A stretch of DNA of 38,196 nucleotides from Eledone cirrhosa (lineage: Eukaryota). The notes beneath the pieces were generated by a model. It saw only the letters and a program-made list of their open reading frames with translations. It was not told where the DNA came from and searched no databases. The stretch lies in assembly GCA_964016885.1 (NCBI GenBank), contig CAXHJY010000066.1:1-38196 (forward strand). The letters run 5' to 3'. Shown here piece after piece: positions 2,365-34,104 of the stretch; position 1 is the stretch's first letter; each line of letters begins with the position of its first letter. The position numbers were made by a program, and so were the translations under genes.

Positions 2365-3250
<886 letters not shown>

Positions 3251-3357
3251 AATAATAATAAAATTGAAGACTAAAATCCAAAGAGGGCTCGATAAGGAAA
3301 ATATATATCAAATATATAAAAACCGTAGAGCAAATATTTATTAAAATAACAGATTAA

Positions 3358-3408
3358 AGTTTAAGCAAAGAATCGCTGCTTTCACCCTTAACGGGATCTT
3401 CTGAAACT
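3358..3408 (-). ncRNA. Type I hammerhead-like motif with CAGAAGA core (U4A)
   Basis: Minus: agttt CAGAAGA t-ccc-gttaa-ggg-t GAA agca-gcgattctt-tgct T aaact. All three stems pair; identical copy at 33548-33598. Confidence 0.6.
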
Positions 3409-4331
3409 AACAAAGTCAATCTGTAAACGCAGAACTGGATATTTCAAAAAACGTTGCAACCGGAGGAAGACAGGAAGACGATACTTTGGTTCGTGGTGAC
3501 GTTCGCTGGCAAAGAACGGGAAAAAACAAATAATACGTCATTAATAGAAGCGGTGAAAAACAATTACGCGCAAAGACAGAACCACGTTCATGGTATAAAA
3601 GAGGTCGTAGACTAATGTTCTCTTAGGTGGTGCATAGAGACGTTCTCTGGCAATGAACGAAAAAACGAAGATAATAAGTCATATGTGGAGCGTGGAGAAC
3701 AATAGCACGCGAAGACAAAACCACGTAAATGGTATAGCAGAAATCGTAGACTAAAATACTAACTAGGAGACCGAATGAATCTCCGCTACAGAGTTAAGAA
3801 CAAAGTAAATAAATACAATACAGAAGTAATAAAAACAAATAAATACATACACGCCAGCAGATACGTACATACACAAGCATCCGCAAAACCTTACCATAGG
3901 TATACGAAGCCACGCACATATAAATATGTGTGTGTGTGTATGCTTGTGTACATATAAATAAATAATTATATAAACGTATATAAGTAAATAAATACGTATA
4001 TAACAAGCGCACGCACATACCTACAGATAAATACACGAATGTTCGGAGACGTAAGTCAACTAAAACAAGAAGTACACATATACACACACCCACCATACGT
4101 ACGGACCTCTATACTCACGCAGACGCAAAACTCCCGTATACACATAGCCAAACCCTAAATACCAGAATATGTAAAAATTATACACCATAACAGTCAAATA
4201 TACGTACGAGAAGGTATACATACCTTCACAAAACATACGGGTAATATATACTTACCTATGCAAATAAGTAAAGGAATAAACATATACTTAGCTCCCGCAT
4301 CAAGACGTAAAATATCCACGTATAGATCGTG

Positions 4332-5267
4332 CTATCCGTTGGGGTATATCGTGGGGCTGTAATACAGGAAAGTTTTGTGCAATTTATGTTTACAAGCCGA
4401 AATTGCCTCGGATTTTTTGTTTAAGATGCGGTCTGTGGCGTAGAGTATTTCCAGGGCCTCAGCGGCACAGAGGTCACATGGTCTTTTATTTCCGTAATAC
4501 GATCTAGCCCTAGCTAGGATCTCCCAGTGTAACTTATATTGGGTGTGGTTGTCTTTTAGACTCCAGATATAAGCTGAAAGTGACGTCATATTCCTTCTTA
4601 GAGGGTAACGAAAAGAATGGGTATGCATGTAAAGGCGCTGCTTGAAACTATTGGCGGTTAACCCTATGTAGGCCCTACGGGACGTGGGTGTTACAACCTT
4701 ACATTTGTAGACAATGTTACTAGATAGGCATTTCCCGGATAGGGGGCAATCAGCCCGATTCCTACAATTACAGTTAGTACTAACTACAGGGTTGCACGTG
4801 TTCCTACGGCTAGGTAGTTTAGCTAAATTTGAAGCTGTGATGTTATGTGCAAGGTTAGGAGTCGTAGAGTAAGAAATTTTAATAGTATTTCTATTAAAAA
4901 TTTTACTATATTTATGTGTAGGGGGAAAATGCTTCGTAATAAGGGAAAGGAAGATCTTAGCTAATGGTGTGGCCACCTCCATATTATATGGTGGGTTAAA
5001 CCAACAAATGCGACGGGATCTATTTCTTCTAGGTCTATTTTCGTACTCTGTATAAGCTACTTTATCGACAAATCCACTTCGAGCAAGAGCTTCATTGTAA
5101 TAAGTGGAATGGTCGTTGAAAATGCGCTCGTTGGTGGAAAGACAGGAAAGCCTCAACGAAACGTTTTTTACCAGGTTCTTGGTTATGCTGGCAGGATGGT
5201 TGGAATGCTTACTTATGTAATTAAGCGTATCATTCGGCTTTCTATACGGGTAATACAACCCATTCAA
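4332..5267 (-). pseudogene. C-terminal part of PLE protein (RT thumb, Cys-rich linker, GIY-YIG endonuclease), Naiad-like
   Basis: Motifs (LDVTLNL)..PYRKP, WFNPPY, KHFP..H..KIFNRNTIKISYS, CNC..CPLSGKC, IVY..YIGLT..FKQR..H, CDLC..E, LNKKSE..CKH. The frame continues to about 5290, where the element is truncated. Confidence 0.9.
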
Positions 5268-5335
5268 TAAATTGAGGGTAACGTCGAGGGAATTCTAAAG
5301 CTGGCCAGTCGAATATATATATATATAATATATAT

Positions 5336-5369: not shown

Positions 5370-5574
5370 ATAGGAACCAGTAAGACCCCGACAGCTGAGC
5401 TCAAGCCGTTTCGACGGCTAATTCTGGACTAATTCAATCCAGAATTAGCCGTCGAAACGGCTTGAGCTCAGCTGTCGGGGTCTTACTGGTTCCTATTACC
5501 CACTCTACTACCTCAAGTATTGAGTACTTTGGTGCGTTATGGTCCACCTGGTTCCTTACCACATTTCCTTCGTT
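5348..5574 (+). mobile_element. Palindromic PLE-type terminal fragment, family C, containing the 3' half of an HHR
   Basis: ~60-bp inverted arms around 5420 plus a ~76-nt tail. ...gaattagccgtc GAAA cggct-tgagctc-agctg TC ggggt gives stem II 3' side, stem III and a GUC site. Confidence 0.75.
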
Positions 5575-5625
5575 ATATATATAATATATATATATATATA
5601 TAATATATATATATATAATATATAT

Positions 5626-5730: not shown

Positions 5731-5894
5731 CTGGACTAATTCTGGACTAATTCAGTCCAGAATTAGCCGTCGAAACGGCTTGAGCTCAGCTGTCGGGGTC
5801 TTACTGGTTCCTATTACCCACTCTACTACCTCAAGTATTGAGTACTTTGGTGCGTTATGGTCCACCTGGTTCCTTACCACATTTCCTTCGTTAT
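5731..5894 (+). mobile_element. Tandem duplicate of the family C long arm, duplicated together with its downstream TA tract
   Basis: 5745-5894 is near-identical to 5425-5574. The interruption pattern of TA tract 5575-5728 is repeated at 5895-6048. Confidence 0.85.
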
Positions 5895-6152: not shown

Positions 6153-6173
6153 ATATATATTATATATATATAT

Positions 6174-6572
6174 ATTCGACTGGCCAGCTTTAGAATTCCC
6201 TTTTTGTTATATTAATCTGCGAGAATCCTGGTTATCGAGTTGAGCTCTGCTGATGATGAATTCCAACCGTGACCATCTCCGCTGAAAGTTTTCATGAAAT
6301 AGTCTTACGACTATACAGAGCATTTGAAGTTTTTCCAAATTGAAAGATAGGTATCTTGAACTTTATTTTATCATGAGTTAAGGCTCTATTGATTTTTCCC
6401 TGGATTTCACTAAATTCTGTGGATGAATTTATATCCTGATTCTCTTTAAGATGAGTTTAAATTATTTTTCCCACATCTTACGTTAACTATTTTTCCCATT
6501 TTGACGCTATAGTCACTTATATACTATGGAATGCTGTTCGCTTTTCGCTGCAGTGTTTTCTATACCTTTCAT
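6174..6572 (+). mobile_element. HHR-bearing PLE-type terminal fragment, family G
   Basis: Unique island between TA tracts with a complete HHR; no ORF recognised. Confidence 0.55.
6244..6321 (+). ncRNA. Type I hammerhead ribozyme with full stem III
   Basis: gctctg CTGATGA tgaa...ttca-t GAA atagtc-ttac-gactat A cagagc. 6-bp stem I, 6-bp stem III, AUA cleavage triplet. Confidence 0.85.
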
Positions 6573-8975: not shown

Positions 8976-9009
<34 letters not shown>

Positions 9010-9130
9010 GGAGGTGAGTTTTATTGTAGTACAATAAAGCAATGCAGATATCGGATAAGAAGCACTCTACAGTTTGTGGGACTGGAGTATGCATAATATA
9101 AGATCAAAAGATGGTTAAAGGAGTTCCATA

Positions 9131-9202
9131 TATTTTATTATGCGCATTTCAAAAACAAACATCATCAAAACAATAATATTTGTGTTTTCATCAGATAAAA
9201 CA
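9131..9202 (-). ncRNA. Minimal type I HHR, family D
   Basis: Mirror image of 9303-9373. Confidence 0.8.
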
Positions 9203-9302
9203 GGAGAACATGATATGAAGGCTAAAAAACACTTGTTGATAGTGCAGTTGATTTAAAACTGCACTATCAACAAGTGTTTTTAGCCTTCATATCATGTTCT
9301 CC

Positions 9303-9373
9303 TGTTTTATCTGATGAAAAACACAAATATATTGTTTGATGATGTTTGTTTTTGAAATGCGCATAATAAAATA
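9303..9373 (+). ncRNA. Minimal type I HHR, family D
   Basis: tgttttat CTGATGA [aaaac-acaaatat...atgtttgt-tttt] GAAA tgcgca TA ataaaata; palindromic helix III ATGCGCAT. Confidence 0.85.
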
Positions 9374-9402
9374 TATGGCACTCTTTAACCATCTTTTGAT
9401 CT

Positions 9403-10018
<616 letters not shown>

Positions 10019-10616: not shown

Positions 10617-10986
10617 TATATATATATATATATATTATATATATATATATATTATATATATATATATATATATTATATTATATATATATATATATTATAT
10701 TATATATATATATATATATATAATATATATAATATATTATATATATATTATATATATTATATATATATATATATATATATTATATTATATATATATATAT
10801 ATATATAACGAAGGAAATGTGGTAAGGAACCAGGTGGAACATAACGCCCCAAAGTACTCAATACTTAGGGCAGTAGAGTGGGTAATAGGAACCAGTAGGA
10901 CCCCGACGGCTGAGCTCAAGCCGTTTCGACGGCTAATTCTGGACAGAATTAGCCGTCCAGAATTAGCCGTCGGGGTCCTACTCGTT

Positions 10987-11034
<48 letters not shown>

Positions 11035-15907: not shown

Positions 15908-16996
15908 GTATGTAGGAAAGGTGTAGGTAGGAACTCCATTCTCTGCCCCAAATGCAAACAATGGGTACACAAGAGATGTAGCAGGATCTCAGGAAGCTTA
16001 ATTAAGAATGTAGGATTCACATGCAGCAGCTGTGCTGAAACAGCAAGCAAACAGCCACAGGAAACAAGTACCACCAATCTCTGGGAGGGCCCTGTAGAAA
16101 CAGTAGACAACTTCTGCTACCTAGGTGACCGAATTAGCAACGGAGGTGGGTGCTCAGAAAGTACAATAACTAGGGTAAGAACGGGATGGAAGAAGTTTAG
16201 GGAACTACTACCACTGCTAGCTGCAAAAGGCTTCTCCCTCAGAATGAAAGGCAGACTGTATGATGCGTGTATCCGAACAGCGATGTTGCATGGTAGTGAG
16301 ACCTGGGCGCTGAAGGTGGAGGACTTAAGTAGATTAGAGAGAAACGAAGCCTGCATGCTCCGATGGATGTGTAACAGTAATATACGTGAACGACAAAGCA
16401 TAAAGGAATTGAGAGAGAGACTGAGCATAAGAGGAATCAAATGCTGCGTGCAGGAGAGGCGGTTACGTTGGTATGGACATGTGATGCGTATGAAGGATGA
16501 CAGTTGCATAAAAAGGTGCAGAGCACTAGAAGTTGATGGAAACCGCGGAGTGGGGAGACCCAAGATGACTTGGGATGAGGTGATAAAAGCCGACCTTACC
16601 CAACTATACCTCTCAAAGACAATGACACACGACCGTGACTTCTGGCGTCACGCAGTAATACAGGGTACTCGACCTCCCATGGGTACGTGCTGAAGCATAT
16701 AAACAATATGCCCCCACTCCCCCCACCGCAAGGTGGTCGTGGAGGTGCCACGGCAAAAAAGCACCCAGCCCACACTGTAAAGTGGACGTGTAGGCGCCAC
16801 GAAAAAGCACCCAGCACTCACTGTAAATGAGGTTGGTGTTAGGAAGGGCATCCAGCTGTAGAAATCAAGCCAGATCAGTTCCTGTATGAGCAAGGCATGG
16901 TCAGCCGACCAGACACTACCCACAACAGGACAACCCGTCTAACCCATGCTAGCGTGGAAGAACGGACGTAAAACGGTGATGATGATGGTGATGATG

Positions 16997-16997
<1 letters not shown>
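15908..16997 (+). mobile_element. 5'-truncated RTE LINE with extended 3' region and (TGA)n tail
   Basis: Open frame 15908-16693 (CRKGVGRNSI, WVHKRC, FCYLGD, LRWYGHV, GRPKMTW) homologous to the ORF at 23893-26961. Confidence 0.92.
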
Positions 16998-17038
<41 letters not shown>

Positions 17039-17302
17039 ATGTTATATATATATATATATATTATATTATATATATATATATATATATATTATATTATATA
17101 TATATATTATATTATATATATATTTATATATATATATTATTGTTATACTTTGGGAGGGTCATGTTGCCAATAAGAAACACACGCACCGGTTGCTTTCACT
17201 TCAATTTATTATATATTTATAAATTTATAAATTTACAAATCTACAAACTTATAAATTTCTGGTTGGTTGGTTGGTTCCACAACCAGATAGTTGTTTATAT
17301 AT

Positions 17303-17347
17303 AGTCATAGTCCTTTCGTCACACACTCTGTGACCTCTTCAGTGACT
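17303..17347 (-). ncRNA. Minimal type I HHR, family F (inverted arm)
   Basis: Reverse complement of the motif at 19105-19149. Confidence 0.85.
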
Positions 17348-17554
17348 GGGGATTCCTTCTTTGTTTCTGTGCCTTTCCTTTCTTCTGTCCTACGCCATTT
17401 TGTTTCTGTGTGTGTGTTGTGTGCTCAGTTTGCGCATGCGCCACATCCGGGTGTCTGTGTGTGTTTGTGTTCATTTATCTATTTGTTTATTTATTTATTT
17501 ATTTATTGTTGGTTGGTTGTTTGTTCTATGTGTGTGTGTGTTTTCATTTTGTCC

Positions 17555-19045
17555 TTAATTGTAAGTTGTGATGTTGCTGTTCCACTCATATTTTCTATTT
17601 AATTTTGGTTGTAATTCTTTTATGCTTACTGCCTCTGTAATTTGCCTAAACATTGCATCTTTTCTGTGTGTGGATTCTATTTTTATTTCTATGTTCTCTA
17701 ATTTACCCCTGTGTTCTATCTTAGCAAGTTGGTAGAGCGCAGATGATTCTTTATTATCTTGAAGGTCTCGCCAGTGTTCATTTATTCGTTCCCCTATACT
17801 ACGAGCTGTCTCACCTATGTACACTATATTTTTGTTTCTACATTGTCCTTCAGTACATCTTATGCTATACACTACATTTCTAGTTTTACAGTTAATATGG
17901 GGGCTTATTTTACAGGTTATACATTTCTTATCTATACATGAGGGTCTTTGGAACGGGTATGTCTTGCTAATAAGTGTTTTTACGGAGGTACCTGGTCTTT
18001 CTACTATCTTAATATTGAGTTTATGTTTATTTAGGGCCCTTCTAAATTTGTAGGCTAGTTCGCCTCTAGGGGTTGTATTGATGAACATTACACTCTGGTA
18101 TTTATTGCTATCATACCATGAGTTTATTCTATTGGCCTTGTTCCTAGTTCTTTCTATTCTATTCCAAAATTTGCTCCTATACAAGGGGCAGGTCCCATTT
18201 ATGTCATTATTTACCATTTTTTCCCATTTGGTTCTGGCTCCTCTATACACTCTGATTCTATCTCTCTGATTGTAGCCAGAGAACTGCATACGGTGGATGA
18301 AGTGTTGTATGTGTCTCTCTAGTTCTTCGGGGTTGCACATGCGGGACACATTTCTCATCACCCGTACCAAATCCGCAATCAGTATGTTGATTTTGGTATG
18401 GTCCGAAATGGCCGAGTTTCGGTGGATCAGATGTTTGGAAGTCATGGGTTTGGCATAATGGGAATGGAGGATTTGTTTTTGGTTGTTAATGGTATCTAAC
18501 CAGAGCTCTGTGTCTAGTACAGGTAATCGATGGTTGGGGTGTCTACTTGGGTAGTCTATAGTAACTCTAATGCTCTGGTGGATGGAGTTTGCTATTTGCT
18601 GGATGCTTTCCATTGTGTTTTTCTCTAGTTCCTGACTGTTCTTTAGTGGGGGTGTCTTAACTACGATGTTTTTATCATCTACGTAGCGGGAGTACATTAT
18701 CAGGGTTAAGCTGTCTTCTAATTGTTCTTTAAGTTTTTGTTTAAGTCTACTGTCCCACCATACCATGAATAAGTTAGCTATGTCGCCTGCAATGCTAACA
18801 CCAATGGCTGCTCCTTCCTCTTGGGCATATGTTTTACCATTAAATTTGAACATATGTTCCTTAAGGGTTAATTTTATGCTGGCCCCTACCGCATGTGCAA
18901 TCATTTTCTTCAGTTCATCGTGGTTTTCGGGTGTCCGTATGGCTCTGGTCCACCCGTTCCATCTATCTGTGTGGGTTTTCTTGGCCATTGAGGTAATGGT
19001 AGGTGGTCTGCCTCTTGCTGGTCTTGTAGGGCACAGGTTGCTAAG
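17555..19045 (-). pseudogene. Inverted 5'-truncated copy of the PLE ORF (RT C-terminal half + GIY-YIG)
   Basis: Near-identical to ORF 21544-22977; the N-terminus given in the ORF track is a junction artefact. Confidence 0.93.
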
Positions 19046-19104
19046 AAACAAAATGGCGTAGGACAGAAGAAAGGAAAGGGACAGAAACAAAGAAAGGAAT
19101 CCCC

Positions 19105-19149
19105 AGTCACTGAAGAGGTCACAGAGTGTGTGACGAAAGGACTATGACT
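19105..19149 (+). ncRNA. Minimal type I HHR, family F (upstream pLTR)
   Basis: agtca CTGAAGA g-gtcaca-gagtg-tgtgac GAAA ggac TA tgact. Confidence 0.88.
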
Positions 19150-19289
19150 ATATATAAACAACTATCTGGTTGTGGAACCAACCAACCAACCAGAAATTTA
19201 TAAGTTTGTAGATTTGTAAATTTATAAATTTATAAATATATAATAAATTGAAGTGAAAGCAACTGGTGCGTGTGTTTCTTATTGGCAAC

Positions 19290-22200
19290 ATGACCCTCCC
19301 AAAGTATAACAATATCGGTTTCAACACACGATTTCAGATAAAGAATCTTGCTAAACAAATTCAGAAACGAAATATCGTAAGCCTTAGCCAGGCTAACAAG
19401 ATACTGAAAACCACCATGTTCTGTTGTCTACGAAAAACCATAACATCTCGACAACTATCCTTCATAAAGCTGTGCGCCACTTCCAAAATCTACACCAACA
19501 CCATCAATACCGACGTTAGAAGATTACAACTCACCAAAAAACAAGCAGATAGGCTAAAACGAACTTTAATTCTAAACATAAAAAAGAAGATCTATAGAGA
19601 ATTAAGTCATCAAGAAAAACAAAAGCGTAACCTAATACAAGAATTAGCTAGAATCACCACACCAAGAGAGAAACTAATATTTATAAGCCTTATACGCCCC
19701 GAAGAACAGTACATTACTCAAGAATGTGATAAGCACTTTAACAGGAAACTAAAGTGGCTTAAAGAGGCAAAGCTAAATCGGGATACTATAGAGTATACCA
19801 ATAGATATCCCGACAAAATTGACGGTATCAACATGGCCGACACCTCATTATCAGAAGAGTTCAACAACAAAAACACCAACATTTATGGGAACGCAAAAAT
19901 AGATAATGATGAAATGTCTGTGTTATGTCTGCCGCCCAAATTTGCGACATTCAAGAAGGTAAATATGATTAGTTGTCTGTCAGAAATAGAAAAATCATTT
20001 ACAAAACTACGCTGGAGCATCAAAAACAAAAGCAACAATATACGCACACACATATACAACACACATCCCAACAACAACAGACACACAGACACAAACAACA
20101 ATAACAACAACACACACATCAACAATAACAACAATAGCAACATACCCAGAAACAACAACAACAGACACGCAGACACAAACAACAATAACAACACACACAA
20201 CAACGATAACACACACGGAGACAACAACAACACACGTCAATAACAGCACACATCAACCACAACAACACACACGCATTCAATGCCTCTCACCACCACCACA
20301 ATCTTAACAAACACACAGACACAGAAAACAAGTAATGACAGTAGCACAGAAATCAGAGAAATAAGGGAAAGTAATAAGATTAAAAGGAAAAGGAGATGGG
20401 AGACTAAGGACAAAGAGAATAACCAAGACGAACACACAGACACACAAAATAGGGTAGATAACAACATTGAGCCAGTGGAAAGAGACAGGAGTAATTATGA
20501 GAGACATAGAAACAACCATGAGGCTGTCGGTGGAAATAGAAATAGAAACAACACAACTAACAATAACAATAGCACTAGTACACATAAAGCAGCAGCCTGG
20601 AACTCTCCGTTTTATAATCCCTCCGATAAATCATTCGACCTGCGACGAGTCCACGCCACGACTTTACCATTTAACAAACGCACGCAGTTGCCGTCGCAGG
20701 TCGATGAACAAACAGAAGCACAATTTAGTATAGCTAAATCCGAACTTAGAAATATTATAGAACAGTATAGCAAGAAGCATAATAGAATAGAGGCCCAGCA
20801 ACTGGGAGAAAAATCTGCAAATGGTTTGCGTAAGCTCATGCAGCGCTCACGTAATGGAGAGATAGCATGCTTTCCAACAGACAAGTCTGGCAGAATGTCG
20901 GTTGACAGCCTGCCAAACTACATCCAGGCAATGCAACCCACATCACTAACACAAGAGAGGTAACACCACAGGAGCATGAGGATAGAGAAAAAGCCCTCAA
21001 TGCCCATATGGTGATGTGGACGAATATAATGCAGCCCAACAAAAGGACTGCCAACAACTTCCAGGCCTGGAACAATGACGTGCCGGCGTTGTATGGGCTT
21101 CGAAAAGACCATAAAACGGGCTGTGACCCTGTCGCGGGTCCACCAACACGCCCAGTCTGTGGAGCTAACATTGCTAGTAACTACAGACTGTCCTACTTCC
21201 TCTCCCTGATCATACGCCCCATCATTGAGATGTCCCCAGATGTATGTGACAGCACGGAGGACCTCCTCAGCAGAATCGGCGCGAGTAACCGATCTGGGGA
21301 CCTAACAAACTGCATAATAGGCAGTATGGATGTTGTGTCCCTGTATCCATCTATTGACGTGGATTTTGCTGTGGAGAAATGCGTAGAAATGATCAGCGAG
21401 AGCAAGGTTGAGTTCCGTGGGATACCAGTGAGCTGGGACTTCTACTTAAGCTTACCCATAGTAATAGTTACCTAGACACTTATGACCTTAGCAACCTGTG
21501 CCCTACAAGACCAGCAAGAGGCAGACCACCTACCATTACCTCAATGGCCAAGAAAACCCACACAGATAGATGGAACGGGTGGACCAGAGCCATACGGACA
21601 CCCGAAAACCACGATGAACTGAAGAAAATGATTGCACATGCGGTAGGGGCCAGCATAAAATTAACCCTTAAGGAACATATGTTCAAATTTAATGGTAAAA
21701 CATATGCCCAAGAGGAAGGAGCAGCCATTGGTGTTAGCATTGCAGGCGACATAGCTAACTTATTCATGGTATGGTGGGACAGTAGACTTAAACAAAAACT
21801 TAAAGAACAATTAGAAGACAGCTTAACCCTGATAATGTACTCCCGCTACGTAGATGATATAAACATCGTAGTTAAGACACCCCCACTAAAGAACAGTCAG
21901 GAACTAGAGAAAAACACAATGGAAAGCATCCAGCAAATAGCAAACTCCATCCACCAGAGCATTAGAGTTACTATAGACTACCTAAGTAGACACCCCAACC
22001 ATCGATTACCTGTACTAGACACAGAGCTCTGGTTAGATACCATTAACAACCAAAAACAAATCCTCCATTCCCATTATGCCAAACCCATGACTTCCAAACA
22101 TCTGATCCACCGAAACTCGGCCATTTCGGACCATACCAAAATCAACATACTGATTGCGGATTTGGTACGGGTGATGAGAAATGTGTCCCGCATGTGCAAC

Positions 22201-22977
22201 CCCGAAGAACTAGAGAGACACATACAACACTTCATCCACCGTATGCAGTTCTCTGGCTACAATCAGAGAGATAGAATCAGAGTGTATAGAGGAGCCAGAA
22301 CCAAATGGGAAAAAATGGTAAATAATGACATAAATGGGACCTGCCCCTTGTATAGGAGCAAATTTTGGAATAGAATAGAAAGAACTAGGAACAAGGCCAA
22401 TAGAATAAACTCATGGTATGATAGCAATAAATACCAGAGTGTAATGTTCATCAATACAACCCCTAGAGGCGAACTAGCCTACAAATTTAGAAGGGCCCTA
22501 AATAAACATAAACTCAATATTAAGATAGTAGAAAGACCAGGTACCTCCGTAAAAACACTTATTAGCAAGACATACCCGTTCCAAAGACCCTCATGTATAG
22601 ATAAGAAATGTATAACCTGTAAAATAAGCCCCCATATTAACTGTAAAACTAGAAATGTAGTGTATAGCATAAGATGTACTGAAGGACAATGTAGAAACAA
22701 AAATATAGTGTACATAGGTGAGACAGCTCGTAGTATAGGGGAACGAATAAATGAACACTGGCGAGACCTTCAAGATAATAAAGAATCATCTGTGCTCTAC
22801 CAACATGCTAAGATAGAACACAGGGGTAAATTAGAGAACATAGAAATAAAAATAGAATCCACACACAGAAAAGATGCAATGTTTAGGCAAATTACAGAGG
22901 CAGTAAGCATAAAAGAATTACAACCAAAATTAAATAGAAAATATGAGTGGAACCGCAACATCACAACTTACAATTAA
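19290..22977 (+). pseudogene. PLE polyprotein (RT + Cys linker + GIY-YIG), disrupted by a stop at 20241 and frameshifts near 20938 and 21420
   Basis: LPPKFA, PTDKSGR, LYGLRKDHK..PTRPV, SMDVVSLYPSI, QEEGAAIG..IANLFM, RYVDD, LPVLD, C-x4-C-x2-C, VVYSIRC..YIGETARSIGERINEH. Confidence 0.93.
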
Positions 22978-23185
22978 GGACAAAATGAAAACACACACAC
23001 ACATAGAACAAACAACCAACCAACAATAAATAAATAAATAAATAAACAAATGGATAAATGAACAGAAACACACACAGACACCCGGAAGTGGCGCATGCGC
23101 AAACTGAGCACACAACACACACACAGAAACAAAATGGCGTAGGACAGAAGAAAGGAAAGGCACAGAAACAAAGAAAGGAATCCCC

Positions 23186-23230
23186 AGTCACTGAAGAGGT
23201 CACATAGTGTGTGACGAAAGGACTATGACT
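23186..23230 (+). ncRNA. Minimal type I HHR, family F (3' pLTR)
   Basis: agtca CTGAAGA g-gtcaca-tagtg-tgtgac GAAA ggac TA tgact. Confidence 0.88.
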
Positions 23231-23456
23231 ATATATAAACAACTATCTGGTTGTGGAACCAACCAACCAACCAGAAATTTATAAGTTTGTAGATTTGTAA
23301 ATTTATAAATTTATAAATATATAATAAATTGAAGTGAAAGCAACTGGTGCGTGTGTTTCTTATTGGCAACATGACCCTCCCAAAGTATAACAATATCGGT
23401 TTCAACACACGATTTCAGATAAAGAATCTTGCTAAACAAATTCAGAAACGAAATAT

Positions 23457-23870
<414 letters not shown>

Positions 23871-26800
23871 CATCATCATCATCATCATCATTTTACGTCC
23901 GCTTTTCCCTGCTTGCAAGGGTGGGACGGGTCTTATTCAGCACAGCATCTCTCCACTCGTCACGGTCCCTCGTCATCTCCACCGTGAGCTTCAATGATCT
24001 GAGGTCTGTTCTCACCACCTCCGCCCATGTTTTTCGTGGTCTACCTCTACCACGTCTTCCTTCAACTGGCATTTCCTGGCACTTCTTCACCCATCGGTCA
24101 TCCTCCATGCGCATCACATGTCCATACCACCTCAGTCTCCTCTCCCGTACACTACATTCTATCCCTCTCAGACACAGTTTCTCTCTCAACACATTTATGC
24201 TGGGTCGTTCACGCACATTTACACTGCACATCCAACGGAGCATGCTTGCCTCATTTCTCTCCAGCCGTCGCATATCTTCTGCGGTTGCTGCCCATGTCTC
24301 ACTACCATGCAGCATCGCGCTCCTCACACAGGCATCATACAACCGGCCTTTCGTACGCAGGGAGAAACCCTTCTTCGTCAACAGAGGAAGCAGCTCCCTA
24401 AACTTCTTCCAACCCGTCCTTATTCTAGATACTATGGCCTCGGAACACCCTCCTCCCATGCTAATCTGATCTCCTAGGTACCGGAAGCTATCCACCACTT
24501 CTATAGCGCCCTCTCGCATTTGAAAAATGTGTCTATCAGTGCGACTTCTACTGTCTAATTTCCCTGTACATCTACTGCATACATATTTCTCCCTACCTGT
24601 TAGTTTGCCTGCTATCCCGCTACATCTCTTGTGTACCCAGGACCTACATTGTGTGCATTTTATAGAATTTATGCCAGTTCCTTTTCTGCATATCGAACAT
24701 GGCCATTTCCCTGACGGAATCAGGGTTTTGTCCTCTTTTCTACTCATCAACACTTTTGTCTTAGCTAGATTTACTCTCAGTCCTCTTGCTTCCAACTGCT
24801 GTTTCCATAGCCGGAATTTATTCTCTAGCTCCTCTACTGATTCTGCCATAAGAGCCAGATCGTCAGCATAGAGAAGTTCCCATGGACAGCCAGTCTTAAA
24901 CTCCTCTGTTATGGCTTGGAGGACTATAATGAACAAGAGCGGGCTGAGGACCGAACCCTGATGTACTCCTACTTGTATCTGGAATTCCTCACTAAACTCC
25001 ATTCCTACCCTGACTTTACTGAGAGTACCTCTGTACAAAGTTTGCACTGTCCTCACAAGCCATTCCTCAACACCCAGCTTCCTTAAGGACCACCAGATGA
25101 CAGATCGGGGTACCCTATCAAAGGCCTTCTCTAGGTCAACAAAGGCTAAGTATAGTGGCTTATTCTTCTCTAAGAACCTCTCTTGCATTTGTCTCACCAA
25201 GAAGAGTGCATCTGTTGTACTCTTCCCAGGCACAAAACCAAACTGCATCTCATCTAGTTTGACCCTTTCTCTAATTAGTTGTGCTAAAATCCTTTCTGCC
25301 ACTTTCATAACCTGATCTATCAGTTTTATACCCCTATAATTGCTCCTCTCCAAAGCATCCCTTTTACCTTTGTAGCAATTTATGAGAATACTGCTGCACC
25401 AGTCTTTGGGTATGACACCACCATATATAGCCTGATTGATGATGCGTGCAACCAGTTTAGTGCCTACGTCCCCTGATGCCTTCAGCATCTCAGCAACTAT
25501 TCCCGATGGTCCGGCCGCCTTACCATTTTTCATTTCCCTAATCGCCTCTTGGACCCTATATTCGTCAATCTCAATAGCTGGTCCCTCTGTCGGATCTACC
25601 AAGGGTAATTTCTTTCTCTCCCATTCGTTCTCCACATTCATCAGTCTCTCATAATGACATTTCCAGGCCTCCTTTTTCTGGTCATTCGTGACACTAAGTA
25701 CACCGGCATCATCCCGGACACATTTATCACCAACAACATCCTGATTTGCATTGACACACTGCCTTGCAATGTGGAACACCGCACGCCTCTGATCTTCCCG
25801 TCGCAGAACATTGGCAAACCTCCTACTCTCTGCCTCCCTGCGTGCTAAGTACACCTGACGTCTAGCTTCTCTCTTAGTGGCTGTATATTCTTCCCTACTC
25901 CCACCCTTTTTCCAAGCGTTCCATGCTAGTCTTTTGTCTCTAATAGCCTTATCTACTGTGTTGTTCCACCACCAGGTCACTCTCTGTCTGGTTGGAGCTC
26001 TGCTCCAGCCACAGGTTTCATCAGTTGCCTTGAGCAAGTTGTCACGTAAGAACTTCCAGTTATTATTTATGTCATACGTCTCTAAATCGTCTTCTTTTTC
26101 GTCATATACATCTTGAAGGGCTTTCCTAAATTTGAATTTTAGTGAAAGGTCTTTTAGCTTCCAGACCTTTCTTCTCCACACCTTCCTATATGTCTCATTC
26201 CATCTCTTGCTTACTGAGATATCACTAACAACTAACCTATGCTGTGGGGTACATTCTTCCCCAGGGTATGCCTTGGTATTAGACACTATCTGCCTGTCCC
26301 GCTGCCTAACTAGCAGGAAGTCAATCTGGCTTATGTGCTCACCAGATTTGTAGGTTATTAGGTGATTGGCAGGTTTCTGGAAGTTTGTGTTGCAAATAGT
26401 CAATGTACTTGCATCACAAAATTCAAGAAGTCTCACTCCTTCTTCATTTCTTGAACCGTAACCGTGCCCACCATGTACCCCAGTGTAACCATCCTGGAGC
26501 TGTCCAACATGACCATTGAAGTCTCCTGCTAGCATAACGATGTCTCCGTCCTCTGTCATTGTGGTTGTTTGCAAAAGTTGCTCATAAAAGCAGTCTTTCT
26601 CATCTTTGCCTAGGCCTGCTTGGGGAGCATAGACCGAGATGATTGTCAGTAGTCTCCTACCTACAACTAATCTAAGCTTAATTATTCGATTACTAACTCG
26701 AACTACCTCTATTGTCTTATTGATCCATTTCTCAGCCAGGAAAATGCCTACTCCCCCTAACCCATCATCCTTACCTACCCAGAATAGCTTATAGCTAAGA

Positions 26801-27280
26801 CGCTTGCCTACGACTAGTCTCGCAGAGGCACCTCTCCATCTCACCTCTTGCACGCAGCACACATCCACCTGCCTTCTCTCCAGCATCTCCGCTATTTCAG
26901 CAGATCTACCTCTGAGAGTGCCAACATTAAGTGTTGCAACTCTGAGATGCGACGTCTTCATATTCTTCTATGCTGTTTTGTTGCTGTGCTGATAAGCTTT
27001 TTGGCATTGATACACTGGTTGGATGCCCTTCCTAACACCAGCACCACTTTACAGCATGGACTGGGTGCTTTTATTTGTGCCACCAGCACTAGAGAGGATG
27101 TCTTACTAGACTCAAGGGCCCTCTCTACCCCTCCATTTTACAGCATGGTCATTAAAAAAAAAACAAAAAAAAAAAAAACTTATTGACACGACTCACACAC
27201 TAATACTCATGCATACAAACCACAACCACACATACCAACACTCATTCATGCATACAATCACACACACCACTCACAAACAT
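23871..27280 (-). mobile_element. Apparently full-length RTE LINE
   Basis: 5' UTR with GGTGTTAGGAAGGGCATCC, a single ORF, and a (TGA)n tail directly after the stop. The 5' boundary is approximate. Confidence 0.93.
23893..26961 (-). CDS. RTE ORF: APE endonuclease + reverse transcriptase with a PHD-like finger insertion; intact 1022 aa
   Basis: ATLNVGTL, QEVRW, SVYAPQ, GDFNGHVG, NYRGIKL, FVDLEKAFDRV, GVHQGSVLSPLLF, YADDL, CSIC..CTQC..WVHKRC..CSRC, LRWYGHV. Confidence 0.97.
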   Translation of the reverse strand: MKTSHLRVATLNVGTLRGRSAEIAEMLERRQVDVCCVQEVRWRGASARLVVGKRLSYKLFWVGKDDGLGGVGIFLAEKWINKTIEVVRVSNRIIKLRLVVGRRLLTIISVYAPQAGLGKDEKDCFYEQLLQTTTMTEDGDIVMLAGDFNGHVGQLQDGYTGVHGGHGYGSRNEEGVRLLEFCDASTLTICNTNFQKPANHLITYKSGEHISQIDFLLVRQRDRQIVSNTKAYPGEECTPQHRLVVSDISVSKRWNETYRKVWRRKVWKLKDLSLKFKFRKALQDVYDEKEDDLETYDINNNWKFLRDNLLKATDETCGWSRAPTRQRVTWWWNNTVDKAIRDKRLAWNAWKKGGSREEYTATKREARRQVYLARREAESRRFANVLRREDQRRAVFHIARQCVNANQDVVGDKCVRDDAGVLSVTNDQKKEAWKCHYERLMNVENEWERKKLPLVDPTEGPAIEIDEYRVQEAIREMKNGKAAGPSGIVAEMLKASGDVGTKLVARIINQAIYGGVIPKDWCSSILINCYKGKRDALERSNYRGIKLIDQVMKVAERILAQLIRERVKLDEMQFGFVPGKSTTDALFLVRQMQERFLEKNKPLYLAFVDLEKAFDRVPRSVIWWSLRKLGVEEWLVRTVQTLYRGTLSKVRVGMEFSEEFQIQVGVHQGSVLSPLLFIIVLQAITEEFKTGCPWELLYADDLALMAESVEELENKFRLWKQQLEARGLRVNLAKTKVLMSRKEDKTLIPSGKWPCSICRKGTGINSIKCTQCRSWVHKRCSGIAGKLTGREKYVCSRCTGKLDSRSRTDRHIFQMREGAIEVVDSFRYLGDQISMGGGCSEAIVSRIRTGWKKFRELLPLLTKKGFSLRTKGRLYDACVRSAMLHGSETWAATAEDMRRLERNEASMLRWMCSVNVRERPSINVLREKLCLRGIECSVRERRLRWYGHVMRMEDDRWVKKCQEMPVEGRRGRGRPRKTWAEVVRTDLRSLKLTVEMTRDRDEWRDAVLNKTRPTLASREKRT

Positions 27281-28761: not shown

Positions 28762-28927
28762 TATATATATAATATATATATATATATTAGATATATGTAA
28801 AGTTATATTCAAAATTGTTGGGTTACAACTAGTAAATATTTATAACTGATATAAAAGCACTCGACAAATACTTGGAGTATATTTACAATATTAAATAAAT
28901 GGAAAACTATATTTATAAAACCATATC

Positions 28928-28993
28928 TATTTCATTATATATATTTCGGGGATATCATATTAACAATATGCTATGCCTTCATCAGACAAAATA
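28928..28993 (-). ncRNA. Minimal type I HHR, family E
   Basis: Mirror of 29148-29213. Confidence 0.75.
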
Positions 28994-29147
28994 CAATATA
29001 AACAGTTTTATAGATAAATATATTCGACATACCGTAATAAACATCAACTTCATTTGAAGAGGTTCACTCTAGAGTGAACCTCTTCAAATGAAGTTGATGT
29101 TTATTACGGTATGTCGAATATATTTATCTATAAAACTGTTTATGTTG

Positions 29148-29213
29148 TATTTTGTCTGATGAAGGCATAGCATATTGTTAATATGATATCCCCGAAATAT
29201 ATATAATGAAATA
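29148..29213 (+). ncRNA. Minimal type I HHR, family E
   Basis: tattttgt CTGATGA [aggcatagcatatt-gtt-aatatgatatcccc] GAAA tatata TA atgaaata; helix III is the palindrome ATATATAT. Confidence 0.78.
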
Positions 29214-29256
29214 GATATGGTTTTATAAATATAGTTTTCCATTTATTTAATATTGT

Positions 29257-29855
29257 ATATATTAGATATATATATTATATATATATATTATATATTATAT
29301 ATATATATTATATATATATTATCTATTATATATTATATATATATATTATATATTATATATATATATTATATATATATATTATATATATATATATATATTA
29401 TATATTATATATATATATTATATATATATATTATATATATATTATATATTATATATATATATATTATATATATATATATTATTTATATATTATATATATA
29501 TATTATATATATATATATTATATATATATATATATATTATATATATATATTATATATATATGTATATATATTATATATTTATATATTATATATTTATATA
29601 TTATATATATATTATATATATATATTATATATTTATATATATATATATATATTATATATTATATATTTATATATATATATATTATATATTATATATTTAT
29701 ATATATATATATATATTATATATTTATATATATATATATATTATATATTATATATTTATATATTATATATATTATATATTATATATTTATATATATATAT
29801 ATTATATATTATATATTTATATATTATATATATTATATATTATATATTTATATAT

Positions 29856-30038: not shown

Positions 30039-30050
30039 ATATATTATATA
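29257..30050. repeat. Interrupted (TA)n tract
   Basis: Direct reading. Confidence 0.98.
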
Positions 30051-30087
30051 TAATATAAGATCAAAAGATGGTTAAAGGAGTTCCATG

Positions 30088-30158
30088 TATTTTATTATGC
30101 GCATTTCAAAAACAAACATCATCATGCAATAATATTTGTGTTTTCATCAGATAAGACA
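30088..30158 (-). ncRNA. Minimal type I HHR, family D
   Basis: Mirror of 32240-32310. Confidence 0.8.
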
Positions 30159-31148
30159 GGAGAACATGATATGAAGACTAAAAAACACTTGTGGATAGTG
30201 CAGTTTTAAATCAACATATGAAAAGTGGTTTTAGATTGATGTGTGATATTGGGAAAAAATATTTTATTTAGAGAGGGGGGGGGGTGGAAAGGATGAAAAG
30301 GGAAGGAGATGAGAGGGAGAGATGGGTGATAGAGAGAAAGAGATAGTTTTTATAACTGAGAGGAGATATATTTTTTACATAGAGAGGTTGAAAACCGTTG
30401 GAAGATACTGTATAAATCAAAAATTTTGAAAATTAACGAAGGGAGGATATGTGCGAGGAAAAAATATTTTATTTAGGGAGGGGGGGATGAAAAAAAGGGG
30501 GAGGAGATGAGAGTGAAGGTGGAGAGGGAGAGATGGGTGATAGAGAGAAAGAGATAGTTTTTATAACTGAGAAAAAGATATATTGTTTTAACATAGAGAG
30601 GTTGGGAACCGTTGGAAGATAATGTATAAATTAAAGGAATTTGAAAATTAACGAAGGGAAATTATGTATGAAGATAGAGAGAAAAAAATAATAATTGTGG
30701 ATGAATATTCTAACGTCAAAAAAAGAAATGTATATATTGTGGCAATTTCAAAATTAACGAAGAGAAAAATTATTAAGGTTTGTGTGTAGAAGGATTTGAG
30801 AAAAATAATGTGAAGTTAAAGTTTGTATATTGGTTGAATTGATAATATATGCGAATAAAGAGTTAATATGTATTAATAATGAGTTCGTTGATGGGGAGAA
30901 AAAAATAATAAATTAAGGATGAAATTGAGATTAAAAAGATTTATGATAGAGAGAAAAAATAATAATGATTGCGGATGAATATTGTATATGTTATGATTTT
31001 ACAAGGTGAAGATAGAATGAGGGTAATGAGTAAACAAGTATTATAGAGTGTATAATGCCCTTTAAAGTAAGGTAGATGGGTATATTTTAAAGAGGTGTAT
31101 GTATATGTGCCTTTGAGAAAAGATTCTAAATTGATAAAGAATTGAATA

Positions 31149-31262
31149 TTAACTGTATACTTTGTGAAAAGTTCTATGGAATTTATGCAGGCAGATAGAA
31201 AACAAATCTGTGCGTCTATTTATTATAGAATCTAGGTTAGAGATAATGGTAAATTTTTCATT
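31149..31262 (-). pseudogene. Last 37 codons of a Naiad-like PLE ORF (below the ORF-track cutoff)
   Basis: NEKFTIISNLDSIINRRTDLFSICLHKFHRTFHKVYS* aligns by eye with AEALEILYATDRILNKKSEAISACKHKLHKTFLYYS of ORF 4332-5267. Confidence 0.8.
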
Positions 31263-32239
31263 TCATCAATTTAGAATCTTTTCTCAAAGGCACATATACA
31301 TACACCTCTTTAAAATATACCCATCTACCTTACTTTAAAGGGCATTATACACTCTATAATACTTGTTTACTCATTACCCTCATTCTATCTTCACCTTGTA
31401 AAATCATAACATATACAATATTCATCCGCAATCATTATTATTTTTTCTCTCTATCATAAATCTTTTTAATCTCAATTTCATCCTTAATTTATTATTTTTT
31501 TCTCCCCATCAACGAACTCATTATTAATACATATTAACTCTTTATTCGCATATATTATCAATTCAACCAATATACAAACTTTAACTTCACATTATTTTTC
31601 TCAAATCCTTCTACACACAAACCTTAATAATTTTTCTCTTCGTTAATTTTGAAATTGCCACAATATATACATTTCTTTTTTTGACGTTAGAATATTCATC
31701 CACAATTATTATTTTTTTCTCTCTATCTTCATACATAATTTCCCTTCGTTAATTTTCAAATTCCTTTAATTTATACATTATCTTCCAACGGTTCCCAACC
31801 TCTCTATGTTAAAACAATATATCTTTTTCTCAGTTATAAAAACTATCTCTTTCTCTCTATCACCCATCTCTCCCTCTCCACCTTCACTCTCATCTCCTCC
31901 CCCTTTCTTTCATCCCCCCCTCCCTAAATAAAATATTTTTTCCTCGCACATATCCTCCCTTCGTTAATTTTCAAAATTTTTAATTTATACAGTATCTTCC
32001 AACGGTTTTCAACCTTTCTATGTAAAAAATATATCTCCTCTCAGTTATAAAAACTATCTCTTTCTCTCTATCACCCATCTCTCCCTCTCATCTCCTTCCC
32101 TTTTCATCCTTTCCACCCCCCCCTCTCTAAATAAAATATTTTTTCCCAATATCACACATCAATCTAAAACCACTTTTCATATGTTGATTTAAAACTGCAC
32201 TATCCACAAGTGTTTTTTAGTCTTCATATCATGTTCTCC

Positions 32240-32310
32240 TGTCTTATCTGATGAAAACACAAATATTATTGCATGATGATGTTTGTTTTTGAAATGCGCA
32301 TAATAAAATA
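32240..32310 (+). ncRNA. Minimal type I HHR, family D
   Basis: tgtcttat CTGATGA ... GAAA tgcgca TA ataaaata. Confidence 0.82.
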
Positions 32311-32435
32311 CATGGAACTCCTTTAACCATCTTTTGATCTTATATTATGCATACTCCAGTCCTACAAACTGTAGAGTGCTTCTTATCCGATATCTGCATT
32401 GCTTTATTGTACTACAATAAAACTCACCTCCTACA

Positions 32436-33036
<601 letters not shown>

Positions 33037-33073
33037 ATTAAATAAATGGAAACTATATTTATAAAACCATATT

Positions 33074-33139
33074 TATTTCATTATATATATTTCAGGGATA
33101 TCATATTAACAATATGCTATGCCTTCCTCAGACAAAATA
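33074..33139 (-). ncRNA. Minimal type I HHR, family E
   Basis: Mirror of 33284-33349. Confidence 0.72.
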
Positions 33140-33283
33140 CAATATAAACAGTTTTATAGATAAATAGATTCGACATACCGTAACAACATCGACTTGTATT
33201 TGAAAAGGTTGATTTGATTTCAAATACAAGTCGATGTTGTTACGGTATGTCGAATCTATTTATCTATAAAACTGTTTATATTG

Positions 33284-33349
33284 TATTTTGTCTGAGGAAG
33301 GCATAGCATATTGTTAATATGATATCCCTGAAATATATATAATGAAATA
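33284..33349 (+). ncRNA. Minimal type I HHR, family E (CTGAGGA core)
   Basis: tattttgt CTGAGGA ... GAAA tatata TA atgaaata. The core change relative to the 29148 copy is at the variable position 7. Confidence 0.75.
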
Positions 33350-33476
33350 AATATGGTTTTATAAATATAGTTTCCATTTATTTAATATTGTAAATATACT
33401 CCAAATATTTGTCGAGTGCTTTTATATCAGTTATAAATATTTACTAGTTGTAACCCAACAATTTAAATATAACTTT

Positions 33477-33523
<47 letters not shown>

Positions 33524-33529
<6 letters not shown>

Positions 33530-34104
33530 ATTAAAATAACAGATTAAAGTTTAAGCAAAGAATCGCTGCTTTCACCCTTAACGGGATCTTCTGAAACTAA
33601 CAAAGTCAATCTGTAAGTCAATCTGTAAACGCAGAACTGGATATTTCAAAAAACGTTGCAACCGGAGGAAGACAGGAAGACGATACTTTGGTTCATGGTG
33701 ACGTTCGCTGGCAAAGAACGGGAAAAAACGAATAATACGTCATCAATAGGAGCGGTGAAAAACAATTACGTGCAAGGACAGAACCACGTTTATGGTATAA
33801 AAGAGGTCGTAGACTAATGTTCTCTAAGTGGTGCATAGAGACGTTCTCTGGCAATGAACGAAAAAACGAAGATAATAAGTCATATGTGGAGCGTGGAGAA
33901 CAATAGCGTGCAAAGACAAAACCACGTAAATGGTATAGCAGAAGTCGTAGACTAAAATTCTAACTAGGAGACCGAATGAATCTCCGCTACAGAGTTAAGA
34001 ACAAAGTAAATAAATACAATACAGAAGTAATAGGAACAAATAAATACATACACGCAAACAGATACGTACATACACAAGCATACGCAAAACCTTACCATAG
34101 GTAT
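33524..34104 (-). mobile_element. Family A PLE 3' UTR fragment without tail
   Basis: High identity to 3334-3903. Confidence 0.92.
33548..33598 (-). ncRNA. Hammerhead-like motif with CAGAAGA core, family A
   Basis: Identical to 3358-3408. Confidence 0.6.

Follow-up and report, generated by a model that had tools for sequence, protein, structure and literature searches.

The locus described here raises the question of what kind of RNA template could yield a retrotransposon copy longer than one unit of its element. In the window, i.e. the whole stretch of 38 196 nt of Eledone cirrhosa DNA that was analyzed, an endonuclease-positive Penelope-like retrotransposon (PLE) is inserted into a (TA)n array; its forward arm covers 4413/4081 = 1.081 units of 4081 nt. 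We consider it probable (roughly 0.6) that this arm arose by run-off copying of an uncut linear transcript with terminal redundancy, a reading drawn from the DNA of one copy.

Structure of the insertion

16994-17137, left flank: (TA)n-rich target array
17138-19045, minus strand: inverted 5′-truncated arm, reverse complement of 21487-23395
19044-19045: head-to-head junction, a 2-nt overlap (AG) common to both arms
19044-23456, plus strand: forward arm
19044-19375, plus strand: 5′ copy of the 332-nt end repeat (pLTR and ORF start), by alignment
23125-23456, plus strand: 3′ copy of the 332-nt end repeat, by alignment
23396-23456, plus strand: 61-nt ‘tail’ between the short and long 3′-ends, by alignment and motif count
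23457-23873, right flank: (TA)n-rich target array

A period scan of 200 offsets gave 347/420 matches at offset 4081 versus 149 at the next best offset, and the two copies of the end repeat are identical at 330 of 332 bases, gap-free. The 3′-end of the forward arm lies at 23456, within codon 29 of the repeated ORF start (base 86 counted from the ATG at 23371); the 5′-end lies 61 nt upstream of stem I (19105) of a putative hammerhead ribozyme and 101 nt upstream of its predicted cut. These values agree with the original prediction of about 1.08 rounds of a 4081-nt unit, with a 3′-end inside the first ~29 ORF codons and a reach of ~60 nt beyond the second hammerhead. Its claims that the forward arm crosses the ribozyme site twice (the motif is in both 332-nt repeats) and that the inverted arm crosses it too (17138-19045 spans the motif) were also borne out.

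It is the inverted arm that has the short 3′-end, which falls on base 25 of the ORF. Each of the two ends, short and long, is located within an AATATCG word, and the unit has only two such words; at both ends 3-4 bases match the (TA)n target. Folding around these two RT start sites showed nothing unusual (z −1.34). Chance alone would produce the 2-nt complementarity of the junction in 5.7% of site pairs, and no extra cap-derived base was seen there. The (TA)n flanks mask any target-site duplication.

The arms differ by 10 substitutions and one indel. All five coding differences (5/5) change an amino acid, and the residues affected, which are conserved in relatives, include some on either arm; thus, the arms were alike at birth. 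Divergence of the repeats (2/332) is no more than that of the arms (10/1909). Non-coding differences are slightly in excess (6/11 substitutions, against a share of 24.5% of the length, P = 0.03), with three of them packed within 36 nt; this excess could reflect more than one template.

Across the window, we saw that all seven two-armed insertions (7/7) paired a short 3′-end with a long one, and that six further insertions of three other families carried a one-sided tail as in the focal copy. The arm reaching further at the junction did not track the tailed arm (focal copy and D1 versus B1 and C2, 2:2, by eye), so that twin priming and fold-back fit equally well. In the four other hammerhead-bearing insertions, 6 of 8 arms start 55-86 nt upstream of the hammerhead core, with 66 nt in the focal copy; short arms of other families could be ordinary early truncations or hairpin stops. 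Neighbouring RTE-like copies are 72-81% alike, and the outer flanks do not mirror each other.

Coding region and relatives

19290-22977, plus strand: Penelope-type ORF in pieces, broken by an in-frame stop and by two frame changes

It had been claimed that the entire ORF was copied; its span is indeed crossed, but the reading frame is not open as assembled, with a stop at 20241-20243 and frame changes near 20939 and 21421-21463. The ORF encodes, in order, an N-terminal domain, an Asn/Thr/His-rich insert (about 20040-20610), an RT with DKSG and YVDD, a C-X4-C-X2-C linker and a GIY-YIG nuclease with CCHH residues. Thirteen relatives (912-1394 aa) cover the ORF pieces in order. Residues Y409, C413, Y425, G427, H456 and H461 are invariant in 11 sequences; of the two cysteines between the GIY and YIG halves, the second is also present in the window protein, its spacing varying among relatives. 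Linker residues C386, C391 and C394 are also invariant and fit the C-X2-5-C-x-x-C pattern of the Neptune/Nematis clade, and a DKG-type motif, PTDKSG, precedes the RT core in piece 20244-20963 (TDKSG is nearly invariant in 10 relatives).

Pfam matches to RVT_1 and GIY-YIG (both E = 1.9e-4) fall short of curated cut-offs, and in 4/4 full-length relatives Pfam found no domain. The predicted model of the nuclease domain aligned with I-TevI (VIA-align: Z 9.7, rmsd 2.1, 87 aligned). For the partial RT model, of low confidence (pLDDT 62, pTM 0.31), the best 50 VIA-align matches included no telomerase; Foldseek gave no fold match at E ≤ 0.001. The RT sequence profile had weak matches, only to bacterial RTs. 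Nine weak bacterial RT matches came up among candidate related loci and are unconnected with the template question. Related loci were two short metagenome contigs, of which only L001 extends beyond the ORF; none was found among 175 viral candidates. In a run search with 21500-23000, 20 of the 24 runs listed contain all or part of the stretch, and no RNA run was among the matches listed.

By its features, the element resembles endonuclease-positive PLEs of the Neptune/Nematis type (PMC8557442, PMC3846280). The shared features are RT followed by GIY-YIG with CCHH, the C-X4-C-X2-C linker, an Asn-rich ORF insert, a partial tandem (pLTR-ORF-pLTR) with an adjacent inverted 5′-truncated copy, a tail on one side and an AT-rich target. 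Unlike in those elements, the Asn-rich insert precedes the RT here, and the tail is 61 nt versus 30-40 nt published.

Hammerhead motifs

19105-19149, plus strand: minimal type I hammerhead motif, putative (core and stems; features as in PMC4209133)
23186-23230, plus strand: hammerhead motif, 3′ repeat copy
17303-17347, minus strand: third, inverted-arm copy, mapped from 23186-23230 by alignment

The motif consists of stem I (AGUCA/UGACU), the core CUGAAGA plus one extra base, a 6-bp stem II, GAAA, and a helix III of 2 bp with a 2-nt loop; the predicted cut is after 19144. Its identity as a hammerhead is suggested by core, stems and conservation in a relative: L001 (41% identical) has the same build 3′ of its ORF. 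Self-cleavage is putative. None of the 11 Rfam matches at E ≤ 1 was to a hammerhead family, a core scan disallowing the extra base had no match at the focal motif, and the folding energy was not unusual (z −0.33).

With the minimal PLE hammerheads (PMC4209133) the motif shares a short helix I, a long helix II, the extra base after position 9, a one-unit spacing between tandem copies and a helix III predicted to form in a dimer only: the monomer loop is disallowed, while the AGGACU self-duplex has −1.7 kcal/mol. Unlike in the published hammerheads, helix III here is self-complementary only via two G-A pairs.

Predicted promoter and transcription start

23082-89, plus strand: ETS-type motif CCGGAAGT, by motif scan
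23091-100, plus strand: NRF1-type motif GCGCATGCGC, by motif scan
19050-19057, plus strand: YY1-type motif AAAATGGC, 6 nt past the 5′-end of the arm
23131-38, 23186-23230 and 23371: YY1-type motif, hammerhead and ORF start in the 3′ repeat
17394-17450, minus strand: ETS-type (GGAT variant), NRF1-type and YY1-type motifs of the inverted arm, by alignment and motif scan

The consensus strings and factor names for the NRF1- and YY1-type motifs are those which we take to apply to these factors. The unit has one motif of each of the three types, and all three together occurred in 0 of 2000 dinucleotide shuffles; the trio was not found in other families of the window. The ETS- and NRF1-type motifs precede, by 43 to 25 nt, the position equal to the 5′-end of the arm and are absent from the 5′ repeat. 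The 5′-end itself falls between the NRF1-type and YY1-type motifs, in a gap of 30 nt that makes up 0.7% of 4081 nt and was noticed after the fact. In human cells, according to two reports, NRF1 and ETS sites lie upstream of starts and YY1 sites just downstream (PMC11269187, PMC11160661). We therefore predict position 19044 (23125 in the 3′ repeat) as a transcription start, by motif rules of human cells that may not be those of the host. The placement of the 5′-end in this gap is new: the literature covered, mostly open-access, contained no mapping of PLE 5′-ends to such promoter motifs.

Template of the forward arm

A linear transcript could account for the arm as follows. The ETS/NRF1/YY1-type promoter at the 19044/23125-equivalent position would drive transcription of a parent locus, and the resulting RNA would carry the 332-nt stretch at each end. 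The RT-nuclease, judging by the published biochemistry of a relative, would nick AT-rich DNA and start copying inside the RNA, in the downstream repeat at ORF base 86 or 25. Both hammerhead motifs are passed without a stop, as seen in the DNA. Copying would stop at the RNA 5′-end, hence the 1.08-unit length. The second arm might be primed on the other DNA strand from the other start site, or might arise when the first cDNA folds back, the arms being joined via the two shared bases.

Known systems offer parallels. The Drosophila virilis Penelope transcript (2947 nt) starts in the upstream repeat and exceeds one unit (PMC2377424); thus, over-unit length needs no circle. Its start in the upstream pLTR is ~120 nt before the hammerhead (summed from PMC2377424 and PMC4209133), and this order of start and hammerhead, like the terminally redundant transcript, would be common to both elements. 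In Anolis carolinensis Poseidon (PMC11167929) RT starts 111-118 nt inside the ORF, both strands are extended, hammerhead cleavage is unnecessary and the template in vitro is mainly unprocessed RNA. Two internal RT starts within the ORF start that set the tail, AT-rich cleavage and, on the run-off reading, an uncut RNA template are common to Poseidon and the element described here. However, the Poseidon start has no homology to the cut DNA, in contrast to the matching bases at AATATCG, and its hammerhead overlies the ATG, whereas the one here is 141 nt upstream of it.

The original prediction was that the template was uncut or rejoined, and that over-unit length pointed to a circle or rolling copying. 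The former part is supported, as none of the 10 arms in the window's five hammerhead-bearing insertions ends at the predicted cut; the latter is not supported, with the 5′-end located at the predicted start of a linear transcript. The circular-template hypothesis itself is not new, having been in print since 2014 (Cervera and De la Pena, PMC4209133). Paired hammerheads would cut out a 4081-nt monomer, the RNA would be ligated, and RT would circle more than once. Two motifs exactly one unit apart, with a helix III that needs both, suit such a scheme, and a circle would likewise make the repeats alike at birth, as they are here. Circles are formed by related non-coding retrozymes, although those described (PMC7229834) come from retrozymes of 170-400 nt rather than from coding PLE units. 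On the other hand, the overshoot is only 101 nt and ends at the predicted transcription start; at −22.3 kcal/mol, the swapped dimer gains nothing over two copies folded separately at minimum energy (about −12 each); minimal PLE hammerheads cleave weakly in vitro (PMC4209133); and Anolis RNA reads neither begin nor end at the cut (PMC11167929). The mostly open-access literature covered contained no demonstration of circular full-length PLE RNA. We regard the circle as improbable, and it is equally doubtful that a hammerhead-made circle coding for the RT-nuclease, copied past its junction, rebuilds the promoter part upstream of the start.

Somewhat less unlikely is a longer uncut read-through or multimeric RNA of a tandem parent, which RT happened to leave at 19044. 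For Anolis Poseidon, both tandem loci and multi-copy mRNA were proposed (PMC11167929), and in D. virilis tandems make up 30% of copies, their upstream members being truncated to varying extents (PMC2377424). The upstream promoter motifs would be renewed too; such an RNA, however, leaves the 5′-end in the NRF1-type/YY1-type gap without a reason. A template jump, invoked for PLEs in the literature, would bring the upstream repeat from a second RNA, or from the other end of the same RNA, via the shared repeat. The 332-nt redundancy permits a scar-free jump and the non-coding excess is in its favor, but no scar or register change is seen across 19044-19375 and the focal copy makes a jump unnecessary; we give it a slim chance. 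Recombination between copies at the DNA level, or a fold-back chimeric read or assembly artefact, seems very improbable: one-base frame changes in the ORF and AT-rich flanks are typical of error-prone assembly, yet the arms end at two distinct motif-matched sites, the outer flanks lack mirror symmetry, and the one-sided tail recurs in the six insertions of other families.

Regeneration of the pLTR

The locus bears on pLTR regeneration and on the role of the hammerhead, questions posed in the literature, and does not settle either. Regeneration of an upstream pLTR, as had been claimed, holds in part: the ETS- and NRF1-type motifs upstream of the 5′-end are not renewed. As a copy whose 5′-end is at the start site lacks these motifs, run-off alone would not renew the whole promoter. 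The D. virilis Penelope promoter is internal (Inr/DPE type, PMC2377424), unlike here, where two of three candidate motifs precede the predicted start and would not survive run-off copying. The 5′-ends of over-unit copies relative to the transcription start offer a discriminator. Should run-off cost a copy these upstream motifs, the majority of full-length daughters would make weak parents, and the family would be carried by longer, less frequent copies.

Layout of the insertion and the encoded protein

We saw the Penelope-like insertion at 17138-23456 resolve into two arms, with 2 bases common to both at their junction:

19044-23456, plus strand, forward arm, 1.081 units of 4081 nt
17138-19045, minus strand, inverted arm, equal to 21487-23395 read on the opposite strand apart from 10 substitutions and 1 indel

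At offset 4081 the two ends of the forward arm repeat a 332-nt stretch, identical at 330/332 positions; in a period scan this offset gave 347/420 matching positions, the next best 149. Counted along the repeated ORF start, the 3′-end is at base 86 for the forward arm and at base 25 for the inverted arm, which leaves a one-sided tail of 61 nt. All coordinates of the original prediction agreed with the offset scan and with the arm and repeat alignments. A partial tandem, an adjoining inverted truncated copy and a tail on one side make up the typical Penelope-like layout as described in PMC3846280, PMC8557442 and PMC2377424, and the insertion shares it.

The word AATATCG occurs just twice in the unit (0.16 expected), and the two 3′-ends fall in these occurrences, the chance of a shared 7-mer between site pairs being 2-4%; this hints at short pairing with an AT-rich target at a preferred word. 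(TA)n arrays adjoin both outer ends. An open 1024-aa APE-RT LINE with a PHD finger lies at 23893-26967 (minus strand) and a truncated relative at 15908-16990 (plus strand), both of which we take to be RTE-like; each carries a (GAT)n tail, and one 3′-end borders each side of the (TA)n array around the focal element, which marks this array as a hotspot for insertions.

Between 19308 and 22959 the ORF is covered in four pieces, in order, by thirteen matches among longer proteins (912-1394 aa). An in-frame stop at 20241-20243, within an Asn/Thr/His-rich insert, interrupts it, and the frame shifts near 20939 and 21421-21463. DKSG, YVDD, a C-X4-C-X2-C linker and GIY-YIG/CCHH residues are present; the last domain aligns with the I-TevI structure (Z 9.7, rmsd 2.1, 87 aligned), and look-alikes of the relative P0002 are eukaryotic proteins with RT and GIY-YIG. 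Judged against the feature list of PMC8557442, the insertion belongs to the canonical endonuclease-positive Penelope-like elements and has the Neptune/Nematis build. No telomerase kinship of the RT was seen in a sequence-profile search or among the matches listed in a fold comparison of a partial, low-confidence RT model.

Hammerhead motif

19105-19149, plus strand, minimal hammerhead motif read from the sequence: stem I, CUGAAGA, one extra base, 6-bp stem II, GAAA, G-GA-C-UA, stem I

This build is the one described for minimal hammerheads of Penelope-like elements in PMC4209133, and it recurs directly after the ORF of L001, a related locus on a short metagenome contig (protein identity 41%). 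Its core, its stems and its recurrence in L001 make 19105-19149 a predicted hammerhead. An Rfam search gave no match for it, and by folding energy its fold was not unusually stable. As computed, helix III does not close in a single copy; AGGACU pairing allows two copies to form it (-1.7 kcal/mol), the swapped dimer (-22.3 versus about -12 for each of two separate folds) bringing no gain. Copying passed the three hammerhead copies of the insertion without interruption.

Promoter motifs and predicted start

23082, plus strand, CCGGAAGT, ETS-type, one per unit (shuffled units average 0.034)
23091, plus strand, GCGCATGCGC, NRF1-type, one per unit (shuffled units average 0.0)
23131, plus strand, AAAATGGC, YY1-type, one per unit (shuffled units average 0.26)

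The three motifs, found together in 0/2000 shuffled units, are read as candidate ETS, NRF1 and YY1 sites; the strings behind the last two labels are presumably the NRF1 and YY1 consensus. In L1 elements a YY1 site reportedly fixes the transcription start. The ETS string is printed in human promoter literature (PMC11269187/PMC11160661), which reports that in human cells NRF1 and ETS sites precede the transcription start and YY1 sites directly follow it. The first base of the forward arm is the equivalent of 23125, on a CA step, within the 30-nt gap (0.7% of the unit) between the NRF1-type and YY1-type motifs. As this coincidence was noticed post hoc and the positional rules are human, from another animal group than the host, we put the probability of a transcription start at that base at roughly two in three.

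A two-codon upstream ORF (ATG GCG TAG, 19053-19061) lies inside the YY1-type motif, ahead of the hammerhead. L001 has four TGACGT/ACGTCA matches 46-113 nt before the hammerhead core; within its 1570-1790, where these CRE-like TGACGT words precede the hammerhead, an ATG at 1752 is followed by about six codons and then by a (TA)n run.

Differences between the arms

All five coding differences change an amino acid, among them, on the inverted arm, an invariant His and, on the forward arm, a Pro that 10/10 relatives retain. Such a pattern has P 0.32 under decay after insertion and P 0.002-0.05 under two working parents with dN/dS 0.1-0.3; it is as expected from post-insertion decay, not from two working parents. 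Repeats (0.60%) and arms (0.52%) diverge similarly, thus all copies were alike at birth. Non-coding differences are slightly in excess (6/11, P = 0.03), three within 36 nt. These three, of ten arm differences (23052-23087 versus 17445-17480), lie just upstream of the predicted start; through one of them the ETS-type motif reads GGAT instead of GGAA.

Other insertions in the window

Six further two-armed insertions (B1, B2, C1, C2, D1, D2), of three other families, lie in (TA)n arrays; the CUGANGA core is present in the B and C copies and absent from D1 and D2.

9003-9410 and 30050-32438, family B, arms head to head, in (TA)n, hammerhead core, palindromic helix III (UGCGCA)
28793-29257 and 33031-33482, family C, short palindromic insertions bearing a hammerhead
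5370-5576, 5736-5894 and 10805-10991, family D, one-sided-tail layout, hairpin-rich, without CUGANGA core
3249-5294 and 33541-34104, minus strand, family E, GIY-YIG ORF fragment, C-x-C-X5-C linker, no CCHH

With the focal one included, 7/7 two-armed insertions combine a short with a long 3′-end, at sites fixed per family (0.5^7 = 0.008 for an independent and even choice by the arms); the three single-armed pieces, D3 plus two from family E, are outside this count. In the five core-bearing insertions 10/10 arms cross the predicted cut and 0 stop there. Six of the eight B and C arms start 55-86 nt before the core (focal arm, 66), and both B2 arms reach ~1.1 kb; these starts are not to be leaned on, since the short B and C arms may be plain truncations and the motif trio is absent from the other insertion families in the window.

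Short and long 3′-ends are identical in both family B copies; the 1.1-kb arms of 30050-32438 hold no long ORF, making it either non-autonomous or captured DNA. The palindrome centre of 28793-29257, at 29070, is perfect, without spacer; the centres of the two family C copies are within ~10 nt of each other, and each copy has its own variants common to both arms. In family D, 5736-5894 shares 99% identity with 5418-5571 and could be a duplicate made by the assembly. Family E, Hydra-like by the description in PMC8557442, also has long and short 3′-ends, and downstream of both copies a hammerhead-like motif with CAGAAGA replacing CUGANGA. A 27-28-nt inverted repeat (5287-5313 and 6173-6200), possibly a small inverted-repeat element, brackets the family D (TA)n array and cuts off the GIY-YIG ORF.

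Linear or circular template

The original prediction had as template either an uncleaved concatemer or a hammerhead-cut, ligated circular monomer copied past its junction; the circle is an already published hypothesis (PMC4209133), unproven; circular RNA has been demonstrated for small non-coding retrozymes (in PMC7229834 and bioRxiv 10.64898/2026.07.22.740005). Excess over unit length alone cannot separate a circle from linear RNA, because a transcript that begins within the upstream repeat has terminal redundancy from the outset, as PMC2377424 describes. The point where copying stopped can tell them apart. A circle gives the RT no reason to stop at the predicted transcription start, where the 5′-end falls, and the focal copy does not favour it; the likeness of all copies at birth is equally compatible with a circle and with a young linear parent. 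We consider a circular template improbable, a longer read-through RNA somewhat less so though still unlikely, a template jump more doubtful than either, and an origin at DNA level or an artefact very improbable.

In the Anolis element (PMC11167929) no RNA reads end at the cut, cleavage is not needed and unprocessed RNA is the main substrate; the RT starts internally, at two sites that lie 111-118 nt inside the ORF, and both strands are extended. In the focal element, transcription from the predicted promoter would start in the upstream repeat, the RT would run off at the 5′-end of the RNA, and the second arm would arise by twin priming or fold-back. If the start at the 23125-equivalent base is right, the forward arm was copied by run-off from a linear transcript that had not been cut, an explanation to which we assign a probability of about 0.6.
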